A stretch of DNA of 62,486 bases from assembly GCA_023430365.1 (NCBI GenBank), contig JAEZAS010000509.1:1-62486 (forward strand), given 5' to 3'. A model generated the notes under the pieces. That model was not told where the DNA came from. It did no database searches and worked only from the letters and a program-made list of their open reading frames with translations. Made by a program: the position numbers and the translations under genes. Source of the DNA: Planctomycetota bacterium. Lineage in GTDB: Bacteria; Planctomycetota; Planctomycetia; Pirellulales; Pirellulaceae. Shown here one piece after another: positions 807-53,843 of this stretch (its first letter is position 1; the number at the start of each line of letters is the position of its first letter).

Positions 807-910
807 GCAGGCTGGGGCCTCGCGGAAATAGAATAGCAGACGGGCGGCGGAGCGGAGTAGGGACGCGGCGGGTTGCCGACTTGGTTGCCGCTTCGCAAAG
901 GCGCGTGCGT

Positions 911-999
911 CCGGCGAGCGGGAGACGTGAGTCTCCCGGTGAAGTGCGATCGAGAGATTTGCGGAGGACCCGGGACGCTTACGCGTCCCGCTCGCCGGG
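911..999. repeat. Paired GNRA-hairpin palindromic element, copy A
   Basis: GCGAGCG-[GGGAGAC GTGA GTCTCCC]-GGTGAA ... CC-[GGGACGC TTAC GCGTCCC]-GCTCGCC. Two 7-bp-stem hairpins lie in opposite orientation; loops GTGA and GTAA (the latter read on the other strand). Confidence 0.7.
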
Positions 1000-1078
1000 G
1001 CCACAAACTTGACAAAGTCGTCAAGTTTCGTTAAATTGCAACCCAGTCCGTTTTCATCGCCCTGACAGGCTCTTTGCC

Positions 1079-2821
1079 ATGCGTGATTCCCGGTCCGCTT
1101 CGCTGCGACTTACGTCCCACCGTTTCGACGTAAGTGACCGGAGGTCGGCGCGGGAGGGTGTTGAACAACCGACGGGGTATATCAACAAGTATGGGGCCCC
1201 TGCACCCCGGGGGGGCGTTGATAAACCTCGGTGGTTTATCAACACGCGTCCCAGTGCAGCTCGGCGACTTACGTCGATCGCGAGCGTCGTAAGTCTGCTG
1301 CTGGCGGTGGTGGTCGGTGGTTCGGTCGGCTGCGGCGATCGGCCGGTGGCCGCGAAGATTCGCGAGGGCGAAGCGGCGACTGCTCCGACAAAAACCGCAG
1401 AGCCGGGGGCAGTCGCTCCGGCCTCTCCTTCGGTGCGAGCAGAACCGGCCGCAGAGGCGGATGCCGCTCCTGCCGTGGTCCAGGTGGCTCAAGCGCCCCA
1501 GCGCAACCAGTCGCCTGCGTCAGCAGCTCCGCCGACGCGTCGGTCCTTGGCGGACCTGGTTCAGCGGGCGGCGAACGAGGAATTTCGGTTGCCGCAGATC
1601 GACGAGGGCAAAGTTGCCGCGGCTGGGATTCGCAAGCTGGAAGGCAAGCACATCACGATCTACACCGATGTGCCCGCCGGGGACGAAGTGGATCAGCTTC
1701 CCAGGGTCTTTGATGCGGCGGTGCCGCTCTACTGCGAGCATTTTGAGCTCGATCCGGCGCAGGCGGCGGACTGGAAGGTGGTCGGCTATCTGGTGCAGGA
1801 CAAGGAGCGGTTTCAGGGGGCGGGGCTGTTTCCCGACGACCTGCCGCCGTTTCTCAATGGTTACACGCGCGGCTCCGAGTTCTGGTGGTACGAACAACCG
1901 AGCGACTACTATCGCCGGCACCTGATGATTCACGAGGGGGTGCACGCGTTCATGTTCCGCTGGCTCGGCGGGGCCGGGCCGCCGTGGTACACCGAGGGGA
2001 TGGCGGAGCTTCTGGGCACGCACCGGTGGCAGGACGGCAAATTGCAACTCGCCTACATGCCGCAGAACAAGGAAGAGGTCCCGTACTGGGGACGGGTGAA
2101 GATCATCAAGGATCAGTTCGCGGCGAATCAAGGGCTGCAACTGACCGACATCTTTCGCCTCGACGCCCAGGCCCATCTCCGCAACGAGGCCTACGGCTGG
2201 TGCTGGGCTGCGGCTCAGTTTCTCGCAGCCCACCCACTGACCCGCGACGCTTTCCAGAAGCTCAAGGACGATGTCAAGGATCGTTCGATCGACTTCTCCG
2301 TGCGGTTCTACGAGCAGCTCAAGCCACAGTGGCCCCAGATCGCCGAGGACTGGCAGTTGTTCATCGTGAATTGCGATTATGGCTACGACGTCGAGCGGGC
2401 GGCTGTCGCGCGCAAGGAAGCGGCCCCTCTGCCGGCCAGTGGCGGCACGGCGACGATTGCCGCCGATCGGGGTTGGCAATCGAGCGGCTTCCAGGTCGAG
2501 GCAGGGAAGACGTACCGAATTGAAGCGGCGGGGCAGTTCACGATTGGGGGCGACGAGGCGAAACCGTGGCTTTGCGAGCCCAACGGCATTACGCTGCACT
2601 ACCACCGCGGTCAGCCAATCGGGATGCTGATGGCGGGAATCAGCGAGGTGGATAGCACCGTGCGTGGCATGACGCCGCTGTCCCGGCCGGTGGCGATTGG
2701 CGCCCGGGGCGAGTTTCGGCCGGAGCATAGCGGCGTGTTGTATTTCTGCGTGAACGAGTCGCCGGCGGGGCTGGGGGATAATCGCGGGACGGTGGCGGTG
2801 CGGGTGGTGGCGGTGGAGTAG
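1079..2821 (+). CDS. Secreted HExxH (zincin-like) protein with a C-terminal beta-rich domain; the true start is probably near 1250
   Basis: ORF 1079..2821. The first ~170 nt are the translation of the repeat above and have no convincing start. Hydrophobic signal-like segment LTSIASVVSLLLAVVVGGSVGC at residues ~64-86; the motif HLMIHEGVHAF (HExxH); C-terminal GWQSSGFQVEAGKTYRIEAAGQF... domain. Confidence 0.6.
   Translation: MRDSRSASLRLTSHRFDVSDRRSAREGVEQPTGYINKYGAPAPRGGVDKPRWFINTRPSAARRLTSIASVVSLLLAVVVGGSVGCGDRPVAAKIREGEAATAPTKTAEPGAVAPASPSVRAEPAAEADAAPAVVQVAQAPQRNQSPASAAPPTRRSLADLVQRAANEEFRLPQIDEGKVAAAGIRKLEGKHITIYTDVPAGDEVDQLPRVFDAAVPLYCEHFELDPAQAADWKVVGYLVQDKERFQGAGLFPDDLPPFLNGYTRGSEFWWYEQPSDYYRRHLMIHEGVHAFMFRWLGGAGPPWYTEGMAELLGTHRWQDGKLQLAYMPQNKEEVPYWGRVKIIKDQFAANQGLQLTDIFRLDAQAHLRNEAYGWCWAAAQFLAAHPLTRDAFQKLKDDVKDRSIDFSVRFYEQLKPQWPQIAEDWQLFIVNCDYGYDVERAAVARKEAAPLPASGGTATIAADRGWQSSGFQVEAGKTYRIEAAGQFTIGGDEAKPWLCEPNGITLHYHRGQPIGMLMAGISEVDSTVRGMTPLSRPVAIGARGEFRPEHSGVLYFCVNESPAGLGDNRGTVAVRVVAVE
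1095..1300. repeat. MITE-like repeat with internal GTTGATAAACC-N6-GGTTTATCAAC palindrome, copy 1
   Basis: Contains palindrome 1218..1244, extra GTTGA(A/T)(C/A)AACC half-sites, a GGGGCCCCTG motif and several inverted ACTTACGTC modules. A related inverted copy lies at 53935..54130. Confidence 0.55.
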
Positions 2822-2951: not shown

Positions 2952-4082
2952 ATGAGTGAGTGTGCTTCGTCCGGAGGGATCGAATCGCGGCAACTGGCCG
3001 AGTTGCAGCTTTGTTTGGTTTCGGGCGTGGGGCCGCGCACCAGGCAGCAGTTGCTCGAGCACTTCGGCTCGGCGGAGCGGGTGCTTGCGGCTTCGCTCGA
3101 TGAGCTGCGGCAGGTCAGCGGCGTGGGACCGAAGCTGGCGAAGAATATCGCCGCGGCCCGATCATGCGATGCGGCGGCCAAGGAGCTGGAACGCTGCCGG
3201 GCGAGCGGTGTGGCGGTGATGGTGCAGGGAAGCGACGGCTATCCACGGATGCTGGAAGAGATTCCCGATCCGCCGGGCGTTCTGTTCCTGCGGGGTGAGA
3301 TTCAGCCGTGCGACGGTCTGGCGCTGGCGATTGTCGGAACACGCCACGCGACGCCTTATGGCGTTGCCCAGGCGGAGCGGCTCGCCAGTGGTTTGGCGAG
3401 GGCTGGGTACACGATCATCAGCGGACTGGCGCGAGGGATCGATTCGGTTGCCCATCAGGCGGCCCTCGCTGCCGGCGGGCGGACGATCGCGGTGCTCGGC
3501 AGCGGGGTGCTGAACGTCTATCCGCCGGAGAACGACGCCCTGGCGAAGGCAATTGCGAAGAACGGGGCCGTGCTCAGCGAATCGCCTCCGTTGTCGCCGC
3601 CGCTGAGCGGAGCGTTTCCGCAGCGGAACCGGATTGTGACGGGGCTGAGCCTGGGCGTGATCGTGGTCGAGGCCTCGGACCGTTCGGGAGCCCTGATCTC
3701 GGCCCGGCATGCGTCGGAGCAGGGGAGGGAAGTTTTTGCGGTCCCCGGTCGGGTCGACAGCCGAACCTCGAAGGGCTGCCACCGTCTTTTGAAGGAGGGG
3801 GCAAAACTAGTCGAGTCGGTCGATGACGTGCTCGAGGAGCTTGGCCCGCTGGTCGATACGATGCAGGAACCGAGCGGGCGAGAGATTCGTCACCCCGCCG
3901 AGCTGCAACTGAACGAGCAGGAGCGGGCGGTGCTGGAGGCGATCGAAATGGAGCCGACCGGCATCGACCAGGTGGTCGTGGCCAGTCAGCTTGCGGTTTC
4001 GCGCGTTTTGTCGACGCTGAGCGCCCTGGAAGTGCGACGGTTGATCCGCAGAGTGAGCGGGAACCGGGTGGTGAGGGTGTAA
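2952..4082 (+). CDS. dprA: DNA-processing protein DprA (Smf)
   Basis: Rossmann-fold signature LAIVGTRHATPYGVAQAERLASGLARAGYTIISGLARGIDSVAHQAAL, an N-terminal helix-hairpin-helix/SAM-like region and a C-terminal winged-helix-like tail. The start is taken at the ATG at 2952; the upstream ORF part belongs to repeat B. Confidence 0.85.
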   Translation: MSECASSGGIESRQLAELQLCLVSGVGPRTRQQLLEHFGSAERVLAASLDELRQVSGVGPKLAKNIAAARSCDAAAKELERCRASGVAVMVQGSDGYPRMLEEIPDPPGVLFLRGEIQPCDGLALAIVGTRHATPYGVAQAERLASGLARAGYTIISGLARGIDSVAHQAALAAGGRTIAVLGSGVLNVYPPENDALAKAIAKNGAVLSESPPLSPPLSGAFPQRNRIVTGLSLGVIVVEASDRSGALISARHASEQGREVFAVPGRVDSRTSKGCHRLLKEGAKLVESVDDVLEELGPLVDTMQEPSGREIRHPAELQLNEQERAVLEAIEMEPTGIDQVVVASQLAVSRVLSTLSALEVRRLIRRVSGNRVVRV

Positions 4083-18876: not shown

Positions 18877-18990
18877 GCGTAGGGTAGGCTTCCAGCCTGC
18901 CCGCGCAGAGAATGACGAATGCTTCAATGACGAATGACCAATGAGGTAACTTGCTTCATTGGTCATTCGGGCTTCGTCATTCGTCATTTT
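18877..18990. repeat. Composite repeat: hairpin family f (CGTAGGGTAGGCTTCCAGCCTGCCCGC) plus family b (AATGACGAATGACCAATGA inverted pair)
   Basis: f: GGGTAGGC-ttcca-GCCTGCCC. b: AATGACGAATGACCAATGAGG ... TTCATTGGTCATTCGGGCTTCGTCATTCGTCATT. Related copies lie at 23950, 24793 and 53736..53843. Confidence 0.65.
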
Positions 18991-24798: not shown

Positions 24799-24876
24799 CG
24801 AGTGACCAAATCCGAATTATCAATCAGGTCGCCGAAGTATCCATTGGTCATTCGTGCTTCGTCATTCGTCATTTCG
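24793..24876. repeat. Family b inverted-repeat element, copy 2
   Basis: GAATGACGAGTGACCAAAT ...spacer... TCCATTGGTCATTCGTGCTTCGTCATTCGTCATTTC, between the ECF sigma gene and the AIM24-like gene. Confidence 0.6.
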
Positions 24877-31606: not shown

Positions 31607-31898
31607 CGGAACTCTCTCCCCGTTTAAAACCTTTCGCCCTGGCGGCCGGCGATCATGCCGGCCAGGTCTTAGCGCAGTGCGAACAAATAGCTCAGTAATG
31701 CAACGACCATCGTGCAACCGTAGCACACCATTTCCCACCCGCCCGCAAGCGAGTCGATTGGCAGCGCTGTGTACATCTGTGGTCAGCTCCAGCGAACGTT
31801 CATGGGATCGAGAAAGCGGCCTTAGCGCCGGCACGGGGCCGACCGCTCGCGCACCTTCTACGCAAGACTAGGTCACGTTTTTGCGCGCGGCCTGCAAC

Positions 31899-32049
31899 TC
31901 TCCGTCCCAGGCTCCCGCCTGGGAGGGAACTAGCCGGTGGCTCAGCCTCCGAGCACCGCGAGGACGGATTGCAGCGGATGCTCCGCTCGCAGGGCGGGCG
32001 AGGCGGAGCCTCGCGTTAGTTTCGTCCAAGGCTGGAGCCTGGGACGGAG
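31899..32049. mobile_element. MITE-like element (family c), copy 1, about 150 bp with 25-bp terminal inverted repeats
   Basis: Left end CTCCGTCCCAGGCTCCCGCCTGGGA, right end TCCAAGGCTGGAGCCTGGGACGGAG; internal GCGAGGCGGAGCCTCGC hairpin. Confidence 0.6.
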
Positions 32050-32208
32050 CGGTAGAAGCAGCAATTGCCGGTTTCTTGCGGTCCGCGCAGCGATGCCCCC
32101 TCGACAAATGCAGCCGGTCGGCTGAAATCGGTCGAGGGGAGCATGGATGTCAATCGCCAGCCGCAGCCATCAGGCATACGGCTGGCGAAATGTCGACGTC
32201 GCGAGCGA

Positions 32209-32388
32209 CTAGGCGCCTGGCAGCTTCTTGGCGACGCTGTCGAACGTAATGTTCGCGTTCGTGCCGATGGCCTGAATGGCCGTCAAGCAGACGATCACGA
32301 TGAGGGCCAGCATCACGGCGTATTCCACCGCGGTCGGGCCATCTTCAGAAGCCAGGAAACGTTGCACTTTCGAAGCGAAGCTCTTCAT
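32209..32388 (-). CDS. flp: Flp/Fap-family pilin
   Basis: ATG at 32388 with GGAGGAG upstream. MKSFASKVQRFLASEDGPTAVEYAVMLALIVIVCLTAIQAIG is the Flp prepilin motif (G/XXXXEY) plus a hydrophobic helix. Confidence 0.75.
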   Translation of the reverse strand: MKSFASKVQRFLASEDGPTAVEYAVMLALIVIVCLTAIQAIGTNANITFDSVAKKLPGA

Positions 32389-32985
32389 GTTTACTCCTCC
32401 AGTCGTGCCTGCTGCCGCGTGTGCAGCAGACAGTAGCCGACCAAACAAAGGACCGACCGAGTCATAGTCCGCCGCTGACGGTTGGTTCCGTCGGCCTGCC
32501 TTGCGAAGGACCGCGACTCAACTAGGTAATAGCTCGCCTCGCCATCGTCTTCCCGTGTGCAGGTAACCGCGAATCCACCGGAGCGGATTCAGCGGAACAC
32601 CCCTTCGGTAGCTCGGCTTCCGACATGAACCTCGCAGCTCATGGCGGCCCGTGGCTTTGCGCACTCGGCATTGCTGCCGGTTTGCCCTTATCGGGGATGT
32701 GAGGCGGCAGGCCATCACAGGATCCGTCAGCCACATTCCGGCGAAGCAGCTAGTGCTTCGTGTTTTCCGGAGGCGGCTGACGCTCCCACGGTCAGCGTCA
32801 CTTCGATGTCTAAGCACCGCAGTGAACCCTGACACCGCAAACCTAGGTCAACTTTGCCGGGTGTCAAATTTGGGGCTTTAGGGAATTCAGAAGATTCTTT
32901 GCGGTTTTTCGCCCGCGCATCTCATGCAGCAGCGGAGCAACCGGCAGAATCGTTAGAAGCAGGCCCCGGGGGGCGTTCCCAACGT

Positions 32986-33144
32986 CCGAATCTCCGTCCC
33001 CGGCTGCCCGCCTGGGACGAAATGGACGCGAGGCTCCTGCCTCGCCAGGCCCGATAGCTGGGCTTTGCGTGGCAGCCCGCCTTTGCGGGGCTCGGAGGCG
33101 GAGCCTCCGGTTGATTTCGTCCCAGGCTGGAGCCTGGGACGGAG
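32986..33144. mobile_element. MITE-like element (family c), copy 2
   Basis: CTCCGTCCCCGGCTGCCCGCCTGGGA ... GGAGGCGGAGCCTCC ... TCCCAGGCTGGAGCCTGGGACGGAG, in the same orientation and architecture as copy 1. Confidence 0.6.
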
Positions 33145-33271
33145 GATTTCTGGATCAGGGGCCGAAGTCCGGCCAAGACGCTCAACCCTAGCTTCGCACA
33201 GGCGTGGGCTGGCTGTTAGCGCAAAAGAAAACCCACCGCTTGCAGCAGTGGGCAATCGATTCTTCCAGAAG

Positions 33272-33355
33272 TGCGGGTGAGAGGACTTGAACCTCCACGA
33301 CCTTGCGGCCACAAGAACCTGAATCTTGCGCGTCTGCCAATTCCGCCACACCCGC
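33272..33355 (-). tRNA. tRNA-Leu (anticodon CAG)
   Basis: Reverse complement reads GCGGGTG-TG-GCGGAATTGGCAGACGC-G-CAAGA-TTCAGGT-TCTTG-TGGCCGCAAGGTCGTG-GAGGTTCAAGTCCTC-TCACCCGC-A: 7-bp acceptor stem, D-arm, CAG anticodon loop, long variable arm typical of Leu, T-arm GGTTCAAGTCC. Confidence 0.85.
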
Positions 33356-46008: not shown

Positions 46009-46087
46009 ACGCTTATTGTCCGTGCGGGGAGCGGGCGGGTCAACAAAAGAGCGGAGGCGAGCGGGCAGGGTCGCAACATTGCTGCAC

Positions 46088-46176
46088 CGGCGAGCGGGAC
46101 GCGTGAGCGTCCCGGGTGCTCGCGGCGACGAGTGGTTCGCGTTTCACCGGGAGACTTACGTCTCCCGTTCGCCGGA
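46088..46176. repeat. Paired GNRA-hairpin palindromic element, copy C
   Basis: GCGAGCG-[GGGACGC GTGA GCGTCCC]-GGGTGCTCGC ... GTTTCACC-[GGGAGAC TTAC GTCTCCC]-GTTCGCC. Confidence 0.7.
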
Positions 46177-46365
46177 GGCCCAGGCGTTTTTCAGCAAAAC
46201 TCGTCGGCGAAAGTAGTAGGCACACCCCGTGTGCCGTGACTCACACGGACGACGGCAGAGGGCGTGTGCCTACTACTTAGCTGTCGCATGGTGTTATCAT
46301 GGGCGGCCGAGCGGCGAACCGATTTGCCGCGGTTCCTTGTTTGCGTTTCCCGATTGATCCCACCT

Positions 46366-49494: not shown

Positions 49495-50151
49495 CTACCA
49501 ACCGTCGCGATAGCGCTGCTCGCGCCACGGATCACCCAACATGTGATAGCCCCCTTGCTCCCAGTAGCCGGGACGATCCTCGGATGTGAGCTCGATCGCC
49601 GCGACCCACTTCGCGCTCTTCCAGGCGTAAAGCCGCGGGACCATGCCGCGGACCGGGCCGCCGTGGTCGGCAGAGATCGGTTGGCCGTCGTGCGTGTCGG
49701 CCAGAAGGGCGTCTTCGGCGACGAACTCGCCCAGCGGCAAGTTGGTCGTCCAGCCACGGTCGTAGGCATGGCAGACGACGAACCTGGCCTCCGGCAGCAC
49801 ACCCGCTCGCTCGAGCAACACGCGGGTGGAAACGCCCTCCCACAGATTGCCCAGCCGAGACCAGGCAGTCACGCAGTGGAAGTCGGCAAACACCTTCACC
49901 CGCGGCAGGGCTTGGAACTCGGCGAGCGTCAGCACATACGGCCGCTCGACGAGGCCAAAGACGCGAAGCTGCCAGAGGTCGAGCGGAATCTGAGGAGTGC
50001 CGAAGGCGTCGAGCACCGGCCATTTGCGGGTGCGCGATTGGCCGGGCGGGATGCGGTTGCTGCGACGCGTATCGGGACTGACGATCACATCCTCCGGCAA
50101 CGCATCGGGGGTCGATGGCTCGCCGGTTTGATACTTCGGATCACTCAGCAT
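49495..50151 (-). CDS. Sulfite-oxidase-fold molybdopterin oxidoreductase (soluble, YedY/MsrP-like catalytic domain)
   Basis: Moco-domain pattern WQLRVFGLVERPYVLTLAEFQALP ... HCVTAWSRLGNLWEGVSTRVLL ... ADHGGPVRGMVPRLYAWKSAKWV. Starts at MLSDPKY; no signal peptide. Its start overlaps the stop of the PafA-like gene. Confidence 0.7.
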   Translation of the reverse strand: MLSDPKYQTGEPSTPDALPEDVIVSPDTRRSNRIPPGQSRTRKWPVLDAFGTPQIPLDLWQLRVFGLVERPYVLTLAEFQALPRVKVFADFHCVTAWSRLGNLWEGVSTRVLLERAGVLPEARFVVCHAYDRGWTTNLPLGEFVAEDALLADTHDGQPISADHGGPVRGMVPRLYAWKSAKWVAAIELTSEDRPGYWEQGGYHMLGDPWREQRYRDGW

Positions 50152-51910
50152 CTTCTTCCTGAGCCTCGGCTGCCGAGGAGTGGGCTTTGCCCGTGACGAT
50201 GCGTCGATAGTCGCGGAGGCGGATCGTCTTGGCCTTTCGACCCTGGCCGATGAAGACACATTTCCAGTTGGCGGCCACCGGTTCGTCGCCGCAGGCGAAC
50301 TCGCGAATGTAGCGGCCGCGGGCGGAGGCGGGAGTGCCGACCGGCGGGTTGCGACGGGCCAGTTCGATCTCGCTCGGCTCCAGAATCTGTTCCGTTACGC
50401 CGGCCGCGTTCAATTGTTGGAAGTAGCCCTGCGGCGAGAGCTCGTGATAGCGGAGGTCGATCTTCTTCTGGGCTTCCCAGCGGGCATCGCTGCCAGCCGA
50501 CTGGAGCACGAACCGCTTCGTCACCCAGTCGAGCGAACCAACGAGCGAATCGGGATCGTCCTGCAAGGCGTCGAGCGTCGCTTCCCAGCGTCGCACCAGC
50601 TCGCGGGCTTCGCGCGGGGCTTCAGGGCGACGGTCGAGAAACCGCCGACAGGCTTCCAGGTAGAACCGTTGCAACTCCAGGGCGCTCGCGTCCTGGCCAC
50701 CCGCCAGAGCTACGCGGGCACTCAGCGAGGGATCGGCGCAGATCGCTCGCAGCGCTCGCAGCGGCCGGCGGATTCGCGGCGGGCGGGGCATTTCCCCCGC
50801 TTCGATGCAGTCGATCACCAGCAGCGTCGTGCCGATGCGCAGGTACTCGGCTGGCTCCGCGAGATTGGAGTCCCCCAAGGCGATCTGCAACCGGTGCGTG
50901 CCGGCAAAGAGCCGCAAGTACTCGCGCGGCGCCATCCAGGCGTCGGCATAGACGGTCTTGAAGAAATGGCCGAACGTGAAGATCGGTCGGTCGCCGAGCA
51001 AACCGCCGTAGCCGGTCAGGCAGTTCATCGCCGGCGCCGTATCGGCGAGGTGGAACCGGCCGGCGTCGTCGAGCATGCCGCTGCCGCAGAGGATCGAGCG
51101 GCTCACAAGGAACGGCAAAATCTCTCGCCGCACGCGCGTGAACGCCGTTCCCCAGAGCAGCAAGTAGAACGCAGCCGCCAGCGGACCGGTCAGCACGCGG
51201 GTGATCGCCGAGAGCCAGGCCTCCAACCAGGCTGGCCCGGTCGGCGCCGCGTGGCCAAGTTGGTCGAACTCGCAGCCGAACAAAAACCGAGCCAGCGCAT
51301 CGGGCCGGCGGGTGAAGCGTTCACCCACCAGATAGACGAGGGAGGCAGCGATCGTGTAGAGGACGATCAGCAGGGCGAGCATCCAGAGCAGCGCCCAACT
51401 GACGAGGACCAGCGGCATCATCAGCACGAGGCCCACGCGCCAGGCCGCCAGCCGCCAACCCGTGGCAAAGGTCGCCTCGTAGTTCTCCTGAGCGCCGTAG
51501 ACATTGCCGCGGGCGTCGCGGTCGTTCTTGAGCAGACGGACCTGTCGGCCGAAGGCCCGATGGGCGGCCTCGGCGAGCAGTTCGTCCTGGGCCCGCTGCC
51601 AGGTGAGCAATTGTCGCGGACTGCGACACTCGGGCGTGGCGCCTTCGACCAGACCGCCGCCGGCCGCGGGGCGTTCGGTCTCGAACCAAACAGCACCGCC
51701 CGACGCATGAAAGACCCCTTCTTTCATATGCCGGGCGTCGACGACGGGAGTGATGCAGCGGAGCGCTGTCACCAGTTCCCGAAAGAGTTGGTAGCGACCG
51801 CCGGACCGCTTCACGGCGCCGGCGGGCAATTGCAAGGCGTATTCGGTCTCGAGGCCGATCAGCCGTTCGAAGACCTCGCCGCTAGGGACAGTGCCACTAC
51901 TACTCGCCAC
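50141..51910 (-). CDS. Pup-ligase family protein (PafA/Dop homolog) with a ~130-aa transmembrane insertion
   Basis: Recognised by eye, not searched: RLIGLETEYA, GGAVWFETERP..GATPEC, NDRDARGNVYGAQENY and ILPFLVSRSILCGSGML, which resemble the Pup-ligase motifs as I recall them. A hydrophobic multi-helix insert (WRLAAWRVGLVLMMPLVLVSWALLWMLALLIVLYTIAASLVYLV ... LTGPLAAAFYLLLWGTAF) lies between the ENY and LPFLV motifs. Start probably the GTG at ~51910 overlapping the stop of the Pup-like ORF; the track ORF extends to 52018. Confidence 0.7.
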   Translation of the reverse strand: MASSSGTVPSGEVFERLIGLETEYALQLPAGAVKRSGGRYQLFRELVTALRCITPVVDARHMKEGVFHASGGAVWFETERPAAGGGLVEGATPECRSPRQLLTWQRAQDELLAEAAHRAFGRQVRLLKNDRDARGNVYGAQENYEATFATGWRLAAWRVGLVLMMPLVLVSWALLWMLALLIVLYTIAASLVYLVGERFTRRPDALARFLFGCEFDQLGHAAPTGPAWLEAWLSAITRVLTGPLAAAFYLLLWGTAFTRVRREILPFLVSRSILCGSGMLDDAGRFHLADTAPAMNCLTGYGGLLGDRPIFTFGHFFKTVYADAWMAPREYLRLFAGTHRLQIALGDSNLAEPAEYLRIGTTLLVIDCIEAGEMPRPPRIRRPLRALRAICADPSLSARVALAGGQDASALELQRFYLEACRRFLDRRPEAPREARELVRRWEATLDALQDDPDSLVGSLDWVTKRFVLQSAGSDARWEAQKKIDLRYHELSPQGYFQQLNAAGVTEQILEPSEIELARRNPPVGTPASARGRYIREFACGDEPVAANWKCVFIGQGRKAKTIRLRDYRRIVTGKAHSSAAEAQEEDAE

Positions 51911-52067
51911 CGTAAGGGACTTCCGTCTCGCGGAGATAAGCCTCCGGAGCAGCCTTCGCGTCGACGGCGATTGCCGACAGCACCTGGTCAAGCGACGGGG
52001 CTTCCGGCCGGGCGACAACCGGCGTGGCGGCTTCCGGGGCTGTGGGAGTTTTCAGGTTCGTGGGCAT
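51900..52067 (-). CDS. Pup-like small protein (C-terminal GGE)
   Basis: 55 aa from the ATG at 52067 (AAGGTG 8 nt upstream): MPTNLKTPTAPEAATPVVARPEAPSLDQVLSAIAVDAKAAPEAYLRETEVPYGGE. Low complexity, C-terminal GGE, directly upstream of and overlapping the PafA-like gene. Confidence 0.45.
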   Translation of the reverse strand: MPTNLKTPTAPEAATPVVARPEAPSLDQVLSAIAVDAKAAPEAYLRETEVPYGGE

Positions 52068-52284
52068 GGGCAGACACCTTGCGCCAGAGGAATCAAGTGA
52101 AAGGCTTTCGCCGCCCCTCATGGGCCGGCACATTCATCCTAATCAGGCCCCGGAGCAGCGGCAAGCGCAGGCAGCGCCCGCGCTCGGTTCCGACCGCGTT
52201 TTGCCGGGCAAATATCCGGCCAAAGTCGCAGCCGGTGGCATAACGATGTTTGCACCGGGACGCCTATTCACCCGGCGCCCAACC

Positions 52285-52325
52285 TAGTAGGCCGGGTGGC
52301 ATGCCGTCGCGGTACTCCGCGTCGG
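52285..52325. repeat. REP palindrome (5' flank of RAYT)
   Basis: GGGTGGCATGCCGTCGCGGTACTCCGCGTCGGCATGG; imperfect palindrome CATGCCGTCGCG-GTACTC-CGCGTCGGCATG. Confidence 0.7.
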
Positions 52326-52434
52326 CATGGAGCCGGGCTCGCGTGCTACCCGACTCGCCGTCCGGCGTCGTTAGGGGACCGCCCTGGTCACTGCTGCGTG
52401 ACATATTTGCGCCAGTGAAGTAACAATTGCCAGA

Positions 52435-53028
52435 ATGAACGATGGCATCCCCAGGCGGACGAAGCACAAGACTTGTCGGCGGTTCAATGAGCCGGGACAT
52501 GCTCATGCTCTGACGTTCTCCTGCTTTCAAGGACGGCCGTTCCTAAGTAAAGATCGAACGCGGCAGTGGTTCGTGAATTCACTGGACGCGGCACGTAGGC
52601 GACTGGCTTTTGACGTGTGGGCCTATGTCATCATGCCGAATCATTGCCACGTGTTGGTTTGGCCTCGAAGTCCGATCTATTCGATCAGCGAGATCCTGAC
52701 GTCGATTAAGTTGCCCGTCGCTCGTCGCGCGGTGGCTTGGGTGAAACAAAACTCACCCGACAACCTCCAACTCATGCGGGACAACCAGCCGAGCGGCGCC
52801 GCGGTCCATCGATTCTGGCAGCGCGGGGGCGGGTTCGACCAAAACCTGGTCGAGGAGAAGTTGATTTACGCGACGATCGACTACCTTCATTTGAATCCGG
52901 TTCGGCGTGGACTGGTCGAGCGTGCGGAAGACTGGAAATGGTCCTCGGCTGGGTACTTCGCGGGAGCGGCCGATGTTCCTTTGAAACCGGATTCGGGTTC
53001 GCTGCCCACGCCGGTGGATGAAACTTGA
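52435..53028 (+). CDS. REP-associated tyrosine transposase (RAYT; IS200/IS605-like Y1 transposase)
   Basis: HuH motif VIMPNHCHVLVWP, catalytic Tyr region YATIDYLHLNPVRRGLV, N-terminal GHAHALTFSCFQGRPFL; flanked by inverted REP copies. Confidence 0.8.
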   Translation: MNDGIPRRTKHKTCRRFNEPGHAHALTFSCFQGRPFLSKDRTRQWFVNSLDAARRRLAFDVWAYVIMPNHCHVLVWPRSPIYSISEILTSIKLPVARRAVAWVKQNSPDNLQLMRDNQPSGAAVHRFWQRGGGFDQNLVEEKLIYATIDYLHLNPVRRGLVERAEDWKWSSAGYFAGAADVPLKPDSGSLPTPVDET

Positions 53029-53057
53029 CACGTTTAGCGTATTACGACTGGTGACCG

Positions 53058-53100
53058 AATTGCATGCCGACGCGGAGTACCGCGACGGCATGCCACCCGA
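53058..53100. repeat. REP palindrome (3' flank of RAYT, inverted relative to the 5' copy)
   Basis: Reverse complement reads GGTCGGGTGGCATGCCGTCGCGGTACTCCGCGTCGGCATGCAATTC, identical over 36 nt to the upstream copy. Confidence 0.7.
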
Positions 53101-53195
53101 CCAAGGTCCGACGCTCGGTAGCACGCCGTGGGCTCACGCCCACGGCTAATCAATGCCGCCGCTGCGCGGCTTTCCTCTTGCCCTTGGGTGGCGCA

Positions 53196-53678
53196 TCAAT
53201 GCTTGGGCACGCTGATCTCGACGCCGTACTTGGGTGCGATCGCGAGTAGCTTTTCGATCTCTTCCTTCGTCGGCGGCCCTGCCGTTTCGCCGGGGGCTAG
53301 GATTCGGCCTGCTTCGAAGAACATTTGTTCGAAGCCGGCTGGGGCGCAGGAGATGATCATGCGGGCGGGCTTGGCGGTGGCGTTGCGGAAGCTGTGCAGG
53401 CTGCCGAGGGGCATGCTCGCGAACGTGCCGGGGCCCGCCGAAAAGGTTTCGCCTTCGACCGTGAATGTGACCTCCCCTTCGAGGACATAGAACGACTCCT
53501 CCTCGCGGCTGTGGGTGTGCGGAGGAGGTCCGCCGCCGGGCGGGACCAGGGCGTCCCACATGGCGTAGCGGCCGCCGGTTTCTTTGCCGGTGACGAGGAT
53601 GCGATAGGTGTCGCCGACGATGGCGATGACCGGGCCTTCGCCGCCGTGACGGATTGTGGCGGGGTAAGGGAGGGGCAT
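53196..53678 (-). CDS. Cupin-domain protein
   Basis: Start at MPLPYPA. Cupin motifs GGRYAMWDALVPPGGGPPPHTHSREEESFYVLEGEV ... PLGSLHSFRN. Confidence 0.7.
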   Translation of the reverse strand: MPLPYPATIRHGGEGPVIAIVGDTYRILVTGKETGGRYAMWDALVPPGGGPPPHTHSREEESFYVLEGEVTFTVEGETFSAGPGTFASMPLGSLHSFRNATAKPARMIISCAPAGFEQMFFEAGRILAPGETAGPPTKEEIEKLLAIAPKYGVEISVPKH

Positions 53679-53735
53679 GGGGGTTTTCCAGGGATATGAG
53701 GCGTGGCGGTCTGGATTAGGTCGCGGGGATTTGGA

Positions 53736-53843
53736 AATGACGAATGACGAAGTCCGAATGACCAATGGATTTGGGCAGGGAGGGTTGGTCCGTTTGTCAG
53801 GTGGCGCTTTTTACGGGCAGGCTGGAAGCCTACCCTACGGTGG
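53736..53843. repeat. Composite repeat b plus f, copy 3 (mirror orientation of 18877..18990)
   Basis: AAATGACGAATGACGAAGTCCGAATGACCAATGGA ... GGGCAGGCTGGAAGCCTACCCTACGG. Confidence 0.6.

Follow-up and report, generated by a model that had tools for sequence, protein, structure and literature searches.

The locus analyzed in this study consists of a gene for a 197-residue protein located between two inverted copies of a 36-nt palindrome, GGGTGGCATGCCGTCGCGGTACTCCGCGTCGGCATG, in a stretch of planctomycete DNA of 62.5 kb, the whole of which is referred to here as the window. The gene is designated RAYT (for REP-associated tyrosine transposase, also named TnpAREP) and the palindromes are designated the left and right REPs; their coordinates are collected in Table 1. 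The 36-mer is present in exactly two copies, one on each strand, and a third copy was absent from the 62.5-kb window when up to three mismatches were allowed; none of 100 dinucleotide shuffles contained a match to it. The inverted repeat is longer than the 36-mer, reaching 40 nt with 98% identity (52290–52329 and 53063–53102). The REPs are 733 nt apart with the RAYT gene inside, and neither the list of open reading frames nor the gene calls on metagenome contigs gave a supported second ORF between them. The preliminary description had placed the same palindrome, in inverted orientation, 110 bp upstream and 30 bp downstream of the gene; the repeat was recovered exactly on both sides, whereas the distances had to be corrected to 105 nt from the left REP to the start codon (ATG at 52435) and 34 nt from the stop codon (ending at 53028) to the right REP. 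The leader between the left REP and the start codon contains a putative promoter, a sigma-70-like consensus match (GTGACA-18-AACAAT, 52398–52427) that was the only site in a promoter scan in which 0.3 were expected.

Table 1. Features of the REP–RAYT–REP locus, in coordinates of the window.
Feature	Position	Strand	Details
Left REP	52294..52329	+	Exact 36-mer; inverted repeat; single-stranded DNA fold z = -5.8; covariance model R1, 60.5 bits
Left REP, GG lead			2 nt
Left REP, GTGG foot	52296-52299		
Left REP, 5′ arm	52300-52312		
Left REP, TACT loop	52313-52316		
Left REP, 3′ arm	52317-52329		
Left REP, T.T mismatch	52307/52322		
Leader, left REP to RAYT start codon	52330..52434	+	105 nt
RAYT / TnpAREP gene	52435..53028	+	197 aa; NF047646 and 4er8_A matches, invariant motifs, AlphaFold2 model
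Right REP	53063..53098	-	Same 36-mer as left REP; R1, 59.4 bits; repeat reaches 53102
Window-specific segment with the whole REPtron	52169..53130		962 nt; blastn against L024 and L025, and gene lists

As single-stranded DNA, each REP is predicted to form a 13-bp stem (CATGCCG-T-CGCGG paired with CCGCG-T-CGGCATG) with a 4-nt loop, and the z-scores of the folds against shuffled sequences were between -3.4 and -5.8. The single mismatch in each stem is T.T, or A.A on the complementary strand. A GTGG foot of the GT[AG]G type abuts the 5′ side of the stem with no gap, and the foot of both REPs is directed away from the RAYT gene: the foot-bearing strand of the left REP is the plus strand, and the right REP, read on the plus strand, is CATGCCGACGCGG AGTA CCGCGACGGCATG CCACCC. 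In a search of the window with the covariance model R1, the left REP was recovered with an E value of 4.8e-13. The two REPs do not have the layout of a REPIN, in which two inverted REPs with a short spacer form one long hairpin. A second inverted match of 10 nt, GCGTGCTACC (52341–52350 and 53117–53126), was dropped owing to its asymmetric placement and a frequency near chance expectation. No Rfam family covers either REP. The only Rfam match near the locus is an Acido-Lenti-1 RNA motif that adjoins the right REP; it is missing from the other RAYT loci and was rejected as a component of the unit. The suggestion that several REP/RAYT systems coexist found no support in the window, in which tblastn detected no second RAYT and the repeat beside the right REP proved to be the Acido-Lenti-1 motif.

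Two further open reading frames, 52264–52530 on the minus strand and 53064–53249 on the plus strand, cross the palindromes, as had been noted before. The REP has an ATG at each end of its stem and encodes HADAEYRDGMPP or MPTRSTATACHP, and spurious gene calls are thereby seeded. On five independent metagenome contigs neither of the two frames was called by gene callers, and on some of these contigs a third REP-derived frame (53018–53149) was called instead; furthermore, 53064–53249 overlaps the 3′ end of the neighbouring cupin gene and the Rfam RNA motif. The small frames are artefacts.

The 197-residue protein was compared with family profiles, known structures and its own homologues, of which there are more than 2,900. 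The preliminary description had proposed a search with Y1_Tnp or RAYT profiles, and these gave different outcomes: the NCBIfam equivalog model NF047646 (REP-associated tyrosine transposase) was matched at 88.8 bits (cut-off 80) over model positions 3–146 of 146, whereas the Pfam Y1_Tnp model gave 19.7, under its gathering score of 23. The HuH motif is N69-H70-C71-H72 (NHCHVL), with the codons of H70-C-H72 at 52642–52650, and the putative catalytic Tyr150 (52882–52884) lies within I-D-Y150-L-H-L-N-P (IDYLHLNPV), which has the Y-x-x-x-NP form of class 2 (class 1 has Y---Q). An FWQRGGG motif spans the W128–G133 region and a WSS motif is located at residues 169–171. In an alignment of 24 homologues, H70, H72, F127-W128-Q129-R130-G131-G132-G133, D135, Y150, H152 and P155 are invariant.

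A single-sequence phmmer search of all PDB sequences returned a sole match, 4er8_A (E. coli TnpAREP), in which NHCH aligns over HMH and IDYLHLNP over DYIYINP; the profile of the 24 homologues, run against the whole PDB, likewise had 4er8_A (E 2.2e-8) as its single hit. The HuH and catalytic-tyrosine motifs that had been read from the sequence earlier are thus borne out by their alignment with E. coli TnpAREP and by their invariance in the 24 homologues. A confident AlphaFold2 model constructed from the same alignment (pLDDT 90.3, pTM 0.85) had 4er8_A as its best PDB match in Foldseek (E 6.5e-9; TM 0.63 by query and 0.74 by target); next came transposases of the IS200/IS605 family, namely those of ISDra2, IS608 and Sulfolobus. 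No extra domain was found in the protein by Pfam, NCBIfam or the AlphaFold2 model. On the basis of the NF047646 score, the motif alignment, the invariant columns and the 4ER8-like fold, the protein is predicted to be a RAYT-type HUH/Y1 enzyme with a complete set of catalytic motifs, and NCBI's own model would already give it this name. For some of the residues that contact the GTAG foot in E. coli TnpAREP, R104 among them, our reading of the alignment shows no obvious equivalent here.

The loci of nine homologues, with approximately 57–76% protein identity to the window RAYT, were compared. The genes neighbouring RAYT differ at every locus; nevertheless, at eight of them the gene is accompanied by foot-outward hairpins of the form G(G/T)GTG(G/C)-CATGC...GCATG. 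The hairpins are located on both sides of RAYT in L015, L016, L017, L019, L020 and L022 and in both units of L023, and downstream only in L014, the contig of which begins 33 nt before the gene; L021 has weak, diverged copies, all of which are upstream. The two complete units of L023 lie 0.8 kb apart on one 5.2-kb contig and are 86% identical in DNA and 85% identical in protein. Covariation was tested on 21 aligned hairpins, with controls in which the 3′ partners were slid by 1–3 columns. The expected partners could pair in 91.3% of the cells, compared with 21–46% in the slid controls; compensatory changes on both sides were observed in 7/15 stem pairs, and none of 500 shuffles reached the observed covariation score.

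The first three bases of the foot (GTG) and the five basal pairs are invariant in the 21 hairpins, and T.T at stem position 8 is nearly so, whereas the inner stem and the loop vary freely, the inner stem nonetheless remaining complementary. Such a distribution would be expected of a protein that recognizes the foot, the stem base and the stem irregularity and for which, beyond these, any hairpin suffices. [quoted passage not shown] The planctomycete RAYT clade is a natural comparative data set, from which the DNA positions read by the protein can be predicted.

Copies of the hairpin away from the gene were searched for in several ways. With the family covariance model and filters switched off, no third REP was detected in the window, the next best hit having 12 bits (E 0.36), and approximately 120 kb of flanking DNA from six homologous loci contained no REP more than ∼400 nt from RAYT. 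High-copy dispersal, which is the usual hallmark of REPs, was not seen in either. The approximately 180 kb without a distant copy suggests fewer than ∼100 REP copies per genome as an average over these genomes, under a Poisson model and an assumed genome size of 6 Mb. In a hairpin-pattern scan of species-representative genomes, L008 was the one true member of the family, the other five hits being chance hairpins without a foot in unrelated phyla, and the scan of metagenomes gave two loci. The copy in L008, a metagenome-assembled genome (MAG) labelled Phycisphaerae, is located beside polA and is identical to the window REP at 34/36 positions, including the foot. L013 has a copy between two convergent genes, and L012 has three diverged copies within 1.1 kb, two of which form an inverted pair; tblastn detected no RAYT in L008, L012 or L013. 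Dispersal was thus observed in related DNA only, where these RAYT-less copies show that members of the hairpin family exist apart from the transposase gene.

In addition, an inverted REP doublet is located downstream of the RAYT of the closest homologue (L014), and its spacer resembles the RAYT 5′ leader, as would be left by an internal deletion of the unit. REPIN-like doublets were found only in such related DNA (L014, 744–892; L012, 4641–4905). The REP family is probably of low copy number in this lineage. Bertels et al. reported 57 and 140 flanking 16-mers per replicon for RAYT Groups 2 and 3, and 12 and 14 for Groups 1 and 4 (PMC5581495); the present copy number looks like that of Groups 1 and 4 and not that of Groups 2 and 3.

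The identical RAYT protein is encoded on the five independent metagenome contigs, with the same neighbours on all of them. The named homologues of RAYT and of the adjacent PafA2-like gene belong to Planctomycetota, and the MAGs carrying homologues are labelled Phycisphaerae, Pirellulales, Pirellulaceae and Thermoguttaceae; Anatilimnocola is also represented. The right REP is located between the convergent RAYT and cupin genes, and the left REP is located in a divergent promoter region. In the two closest relatives that were found, L024 and L025, the PafA2-like protein is 85–87% identical to that of the window. Both align with the window by blastn up to position 52168 and again from position 53131, and the segment specific to the window contains the whole REP–RAYT–REP unit (Table 1). 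RAYT is absent from the same slot in both relatives, which is filled by a PDZ gene in L025 and by DUF2071, a 133-aa gene and PDZ in L024. A solo REP (35 bits) lies directly after the cupin gene of L024, in the position and orientation of the right REP of the window, with the TACT loop kept and a compensatory change in the inner stem; L025 has no such REP. Owing to the strong divergence of the intergenic DNA, comparison with L024 and L025 did not yield exact REP insertion boundaries. The GC3 of RAYT is 0.67, compared with 0.81–0.83 in the neighbouring genes. The unit occupies a variable intergenic slot. Together with the two units of L023, these observations agree with gain, loss or replacement of the unit over moderate time-scales, without distinguishing transposition of the whole unit from its loss in the relatives. 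A tblastn search of plasmids with RAYT gave only five distant matches (22–29% identity), on large replicons of other phyla.

A REPtron has been defined by Ton-Hoang et al. and Quentin et al. as a gene of this type near canonical REPs with a 5′ GT[AG]G foot. The locus is best explained as a REPtron, i.e. an intact RAYT/TnpAREP-type gene between two inverted copies of its cognate REP, to which we assign a probability of roughly 0.85. This reading follows from the family model, the alignment of the HuH and tyrosine motifs, the 4ER8-like fold, the inverted hairpins of the GT[AG]G type and the same layout at homologous loci. The relation is probably cognate in the sense that the protein recognizes the hairpin that flanks its gene. 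The annotation of the region is thereby settled, with the 197-aa ORF as a real RAYT, the palindromes as REPs and the frames across them as artefacts. The locus is a well formed new example of a known system and not a new kind of element.

The mechanism proposed for this REPtron is modelled on the characterized E. coli TnpAREP (PMC3333891, PMC3479197, PMC8266576). A TnpAREP-like protein would bind the foot-bearing strand (5′ GTGG) of the REP in its folded form while the DNA is transiently single-stranded, and the foot and the irregularity of the stem would serve as specificity determinants. H70 and H72 would coordinate a divalent metal, and Tyr150 would cleave near the hairpin to form a 5′-phosphotyrosine link; rejoining of the strands by the protein could then move or copy REPs and REP doublets. 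Since the flanking REPs are inverted, each strand presents one copy in the substrate orientation. Strand-specific cleavage and strand transfer of single-stranded REPs have been described in work on E. coli, S. maltophilia and Marinomonas (PMC3333891, PMC8266576), and by analogy we infer the same activities for the window protein.

The E. coli K-12 REPtron (TnpAREP, or RayT/YafM, with REP/BIME; PDB 4ER8; Quentin subclass 2.2, Bertels Group 2) is the best PDB match in both structure and sequence and has the same HUH/Y1 fold. The two systems share the HuH and Y-x-x-x-NP motifs and the location of the gene between inverted REPs, and in both REPs a 4-nt 5′ foot immediately adjoins the base of an imperfect hairpin whose stem is irregular in its middle part. 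However, the identity of the protein to E. coli TnpAREP is just ∼18%, and the HuH motif is NHCH here and EHMH in E. coli. The foot is GTGG here instead of GTAG, and a T.T mismatch takes the place of the A12A13/G26C27 bulge. Furthermore, one REP is present on each side of the gene, whereas E. coli has BIME clusters, and there is no sign here of hundreds of copies. The arrangement had been called canonical in the preliminary description; this holds for the layout, but the apparent copy number and the history of the locus are less like those of the high-copy, vertically inherited proteobacterial systems. RAYTs in the sense of Bertels et al. are vertically inherited genes present once per genome; the window contains one RAYT, whereas one related contig has two units and two close relatives lack the gene in this slot.

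Among the classes of TnpAY1 proteins, the protein is nearest to subclass 2.4 of Quentin et al. 2018 (Bertels Group 4), although the assignment is ambiguous, being a comparison of motifs in which features are shared with subclasses 2.6 and 2.1. Subclass 2.4 is characterized by NH[IFV]H, WQ and YIxNNP motifs, a median length of 194 aa, long canonical REPs and low counts of flanking 16-mers. The length of 197 aa, the NHxH and WQ motifs, the long hairpin with a GT[AG]G foot and the low apparent copy number agree with this, and YIHNNP is the tyrosine motif of several members of the clade. In contrast, the window protein has YLHLNP and a WSS tail motif, which Quentin et al. list for subclasses 2.1, 2.2 and 2.6; the base of the stem is C-G, A-T, T-A instead of three G-C pairs, and neither a double foot nor a REP inserted within a gene was observed. 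The TIRYT proteins of subclass 2.1 (Bertels Group 1) likewise have a Y[IV]HLNP-like tyrosine motif and an SS motif, but they have a C-terminal HTH, a median length of 238 aa and either long terminal inverted repeats (GGGG[AT][CG]A[CG]) or none, with no footed hairpins. The window protein differs from these in that it has 197 aa, ends ∼26 residues past WSS, has no HTH and is flanked by footed hairpins in place of terminal inverted repeats.

Similar elements have been described in PVC bacteria. The GTAG-tagged REP families of Di Nocera et al. 2013 include REPs of Rhodopirellula baltica, together with several tyrosine transposases, and GTAG-20 of Opitutus terrae with a GTGG tag (PMC3733652). By their description, these resemble the present family (GTGG-CATGCC...GGCATG) in their planctomycete or PVC hosts, in the association of tagged stem-loops with tyrosine transposase genes and in the documented GTGG variant of the tag; the O. 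terrae repeats are abundant and often intragenic. A more distant likeness is to the IS200/IS605 elements IS608 and ISDra2, the transposases of which have the HUH/Y1 fold and were second-tier structural matches, and which also have subterminal imperfect hairpins, a 5′ guide tetranucleotide and single-stranded DNA substrates. However, their own features, namely Y---Q, obligate dimers, unequal ends on the same strand, a frequently multi-copy state and tnpB, were not seen here, and membership of IS200/IS605 was rejected in view of the YLHLNP motif, the identical inverted ends, the lack of a supported second ORF and the single copy in the window.

The main rival to the REPtron reading is that the whole REP–RAYT–REP segment is a still-mobile IS-like element, the solo REPs and doublets being MITE-like deletion derivatives and not copies amplified by a domesticated, stationary gene. 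We regard this as unlikely, if worth serious consideration; it is partly compatible with the REPtron reading, so that the two are not fully exclusive. Mobility would account for the different neighbouring genes at every homologous locus, for the relatives with 85–87% PafA2 identity that have other genes and no RAYT in the slot, for the divergent GC3 of RAYT and for the two complete units on the L023 contig; internal deletion would account for the leader-like spacer of the L014 doublet, and REPs are indeed rare away from the RAYT gene. However, the loss of synteny is expected in any case at 57–63% protein identity, the solo REP of L024 fits loss of RAYT as well as gain, and the L023 units, at just 86% identity, argue against recent transposition. 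The ends are identical inverted hairpins, whereas in IS200/IS605 elements the left and right hairpins differ from each other and share one strand (PMC6006769, PMC8266576), and the tyrosine motif is the YxHxNP of class 2 and not the Y---Q of IS200 transposases. Furthermore, the window has one copy of the segment, and the identical protein stands in the same context on all five contigs.

Two other readings carry much less weight. The unit might be an inactive relic with a decaying RAYT that has ceased to act on DNA, to which the low local copy number of the REP and the atypical codon usage would be suited; this is very improbable, as the ORF has its full length and aligns co-linearly with its homologues, all of the invariant family positions are kept (HuH, WQRGGG and Tyr among them), the two flanking REPs do not differ at any of their 36 nt, and the protein is the same on five independent metagenome contigs. 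Scarcely credible is the view that the palindromes serve the neighbouring genes as local regulatory hairpins or terminators and lie beside a transposase-like gene by coincidence. The position of the right copy between the convergent RAYT and cupin genes, that of the left copy in a divergent promoter region and the solo copies of L013 and L024 just past the ends of genes agree with a local role, but neither copy has a T-run or is called by a terminator scan, and exact identity over 36 nt is unexpected for two unrelated terminators. In addition, at eight homologous loci, where the neighbours are otherwise unrelated, RAYT is accompanied by the same foot and hairpin, and the invariance of the GTG and the five basal pairs, with covariation of the inner stem, also speaks against this view.

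Beyond its identification as a REPtron, the locus is of interest on three counts: the foot and basal stem do not vary within the clade, REP copies appear to be few, and there are hints of a unit that is not stationary. Whether RAYTs are residual transposons or domesticated genes is a long-running question, to which the tandem units, the doublets without RAYT, the low copy number and the variable insertion slot are all relevant. A tentative and rather doubtful extension is that the clade survives as an intermediate between insertion sequences of the IS200/IS605 family and REP/RAYT systems that have been domesticated, in which the unit relocates, is duplicated, is lost and spawns a few solo REPs and doublets by internal deletion, while the recognition module (GTGG foot, CATGC basal stem and T.T mismatch) remains unchanged across RAYTs at about 55–60% identity. 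Such a history, if true, would be unlike the lineage-specific turnover of REPs described in proteobacteria.

An Acido-Lenti-1 RNA motif (Rfam RF01687) is located 27 nt outside the right REP of the REPtron, between this repeat and the stop codon of the cupin gene, and a second copy is found in L025, a close relative. None was detected in the 11 other related loci scanned, a set that did not include L012 and L021, and the motif is therefore an element independent of the REPtron. The family was named after the Acidobacteria and Lentisphaerae, and the host here is a planctomycete.

Among the related loci with RAYT homologues, L023 carries two complete REP-RAYT-REP units in tandem, separated by a 202-aa ORF that cannot be assigned to any known family. 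The inner pair of REPs shares one sequence and the outer pair another, and the difference between the pairs lies in the loop. Furthermore, half-sites consisting only of the foot and the 5' arm lie approximately 22 nt upstream of the foot of a full REP in three lineages (L017, L019 and L023); the counterpart in the window is only a weak GGTGGCAT, which precedes the left REP by approximately 60 nt. Since an ATG is present at both ends of the REP stem, the repeat seeds spurious ORFs, which start with MPTRS or contain HADAEYRDGMPP, and some of these are annotated as genes in public assemblies.

Coordinates of features in the window and in related loci
Feature	Sequence	Positions (strand)	Remarks
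Acido-Lenti-1 motif	Window	53126-53171 (+)	54.7 bits; gathering score 37
Acido-Lenti-1, second copy	L025	904-949 (+)	
Two REP-RAYT-REP units	L023	794-2901	Single 5.2-kb contig
Half-sites	L017	9889-9906	
Half-sites	L019	9904-9921, 10652-10669	
Half-sites	L023	773-790	
Half-site counterpart	Window	52234-52241	
REP-seeded ORFs	Window	52264-52530 (-), 53018-53149 (+), 53064-53249 (+)	
REP-seeded ORF	L008 (REP copy beside polA)	3440-3760 (-)	
REP-seeded ORF	L014 (RAYT homologue)	840-1121 (+)	
Inverted doublets of another repeat	Window	897-1011, 2829-2911, 46074-46189	
c-di-GMP-I riboswitch and tRNA gene in repeat-rich patch	Window	32604-32696 (-), 33272-33355 (-), 31887-33153	Spans listed jointly
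36-nt block CATTGGTCATTCG.GCTTCGTCATTCGTCATTT (three copies); 26-nt exact block CGTAGGGTAGGCTTCCAGCCTGCCCG (two copies)	Window	18878-18989, 24839-24875, 53734-53839	Spans listed jointly
55-aa gene	Window	51900-52067 (-)	C-terminal end EVPYGGE
PafA2/Pup-ligase-family gene	Window	50141-51910 (-)	

The window also contains repeats other than the REP of the REPtron. In the repeat that forms the inverted doublets, GGCGAGC precedes a 7-bp hairpin whose loop is GTGA; the stems vary in sequence from copy to copy while complementarity is kept. Their layout is REPIN-like; they lack a GT[AG]G foot, and the window holds no RAYT for them. The patch around the riboswitch and the tRNA gene comprises direct and inverted repeats of 50-82 nt of the CGTCCCAGGCTGGAGCCTGGGACG type, and one set of the 36-nt and 26-nt blocks is situated immediately upstream of the cupin gene adjoining the REPtron. 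GAATG-rich runs similar to these blocks precede polA in L008.

The 55-aa gene, the product of which has no match in Pfam, overlaps by 11 nt with the start of the PafA2/Pup-ligase-family gene, and its counterpart is kept at 54-55 aa in the close relatives L024 and L025. Together, the two genes look like a small modifier of the Pup/UBact type with its ligase.
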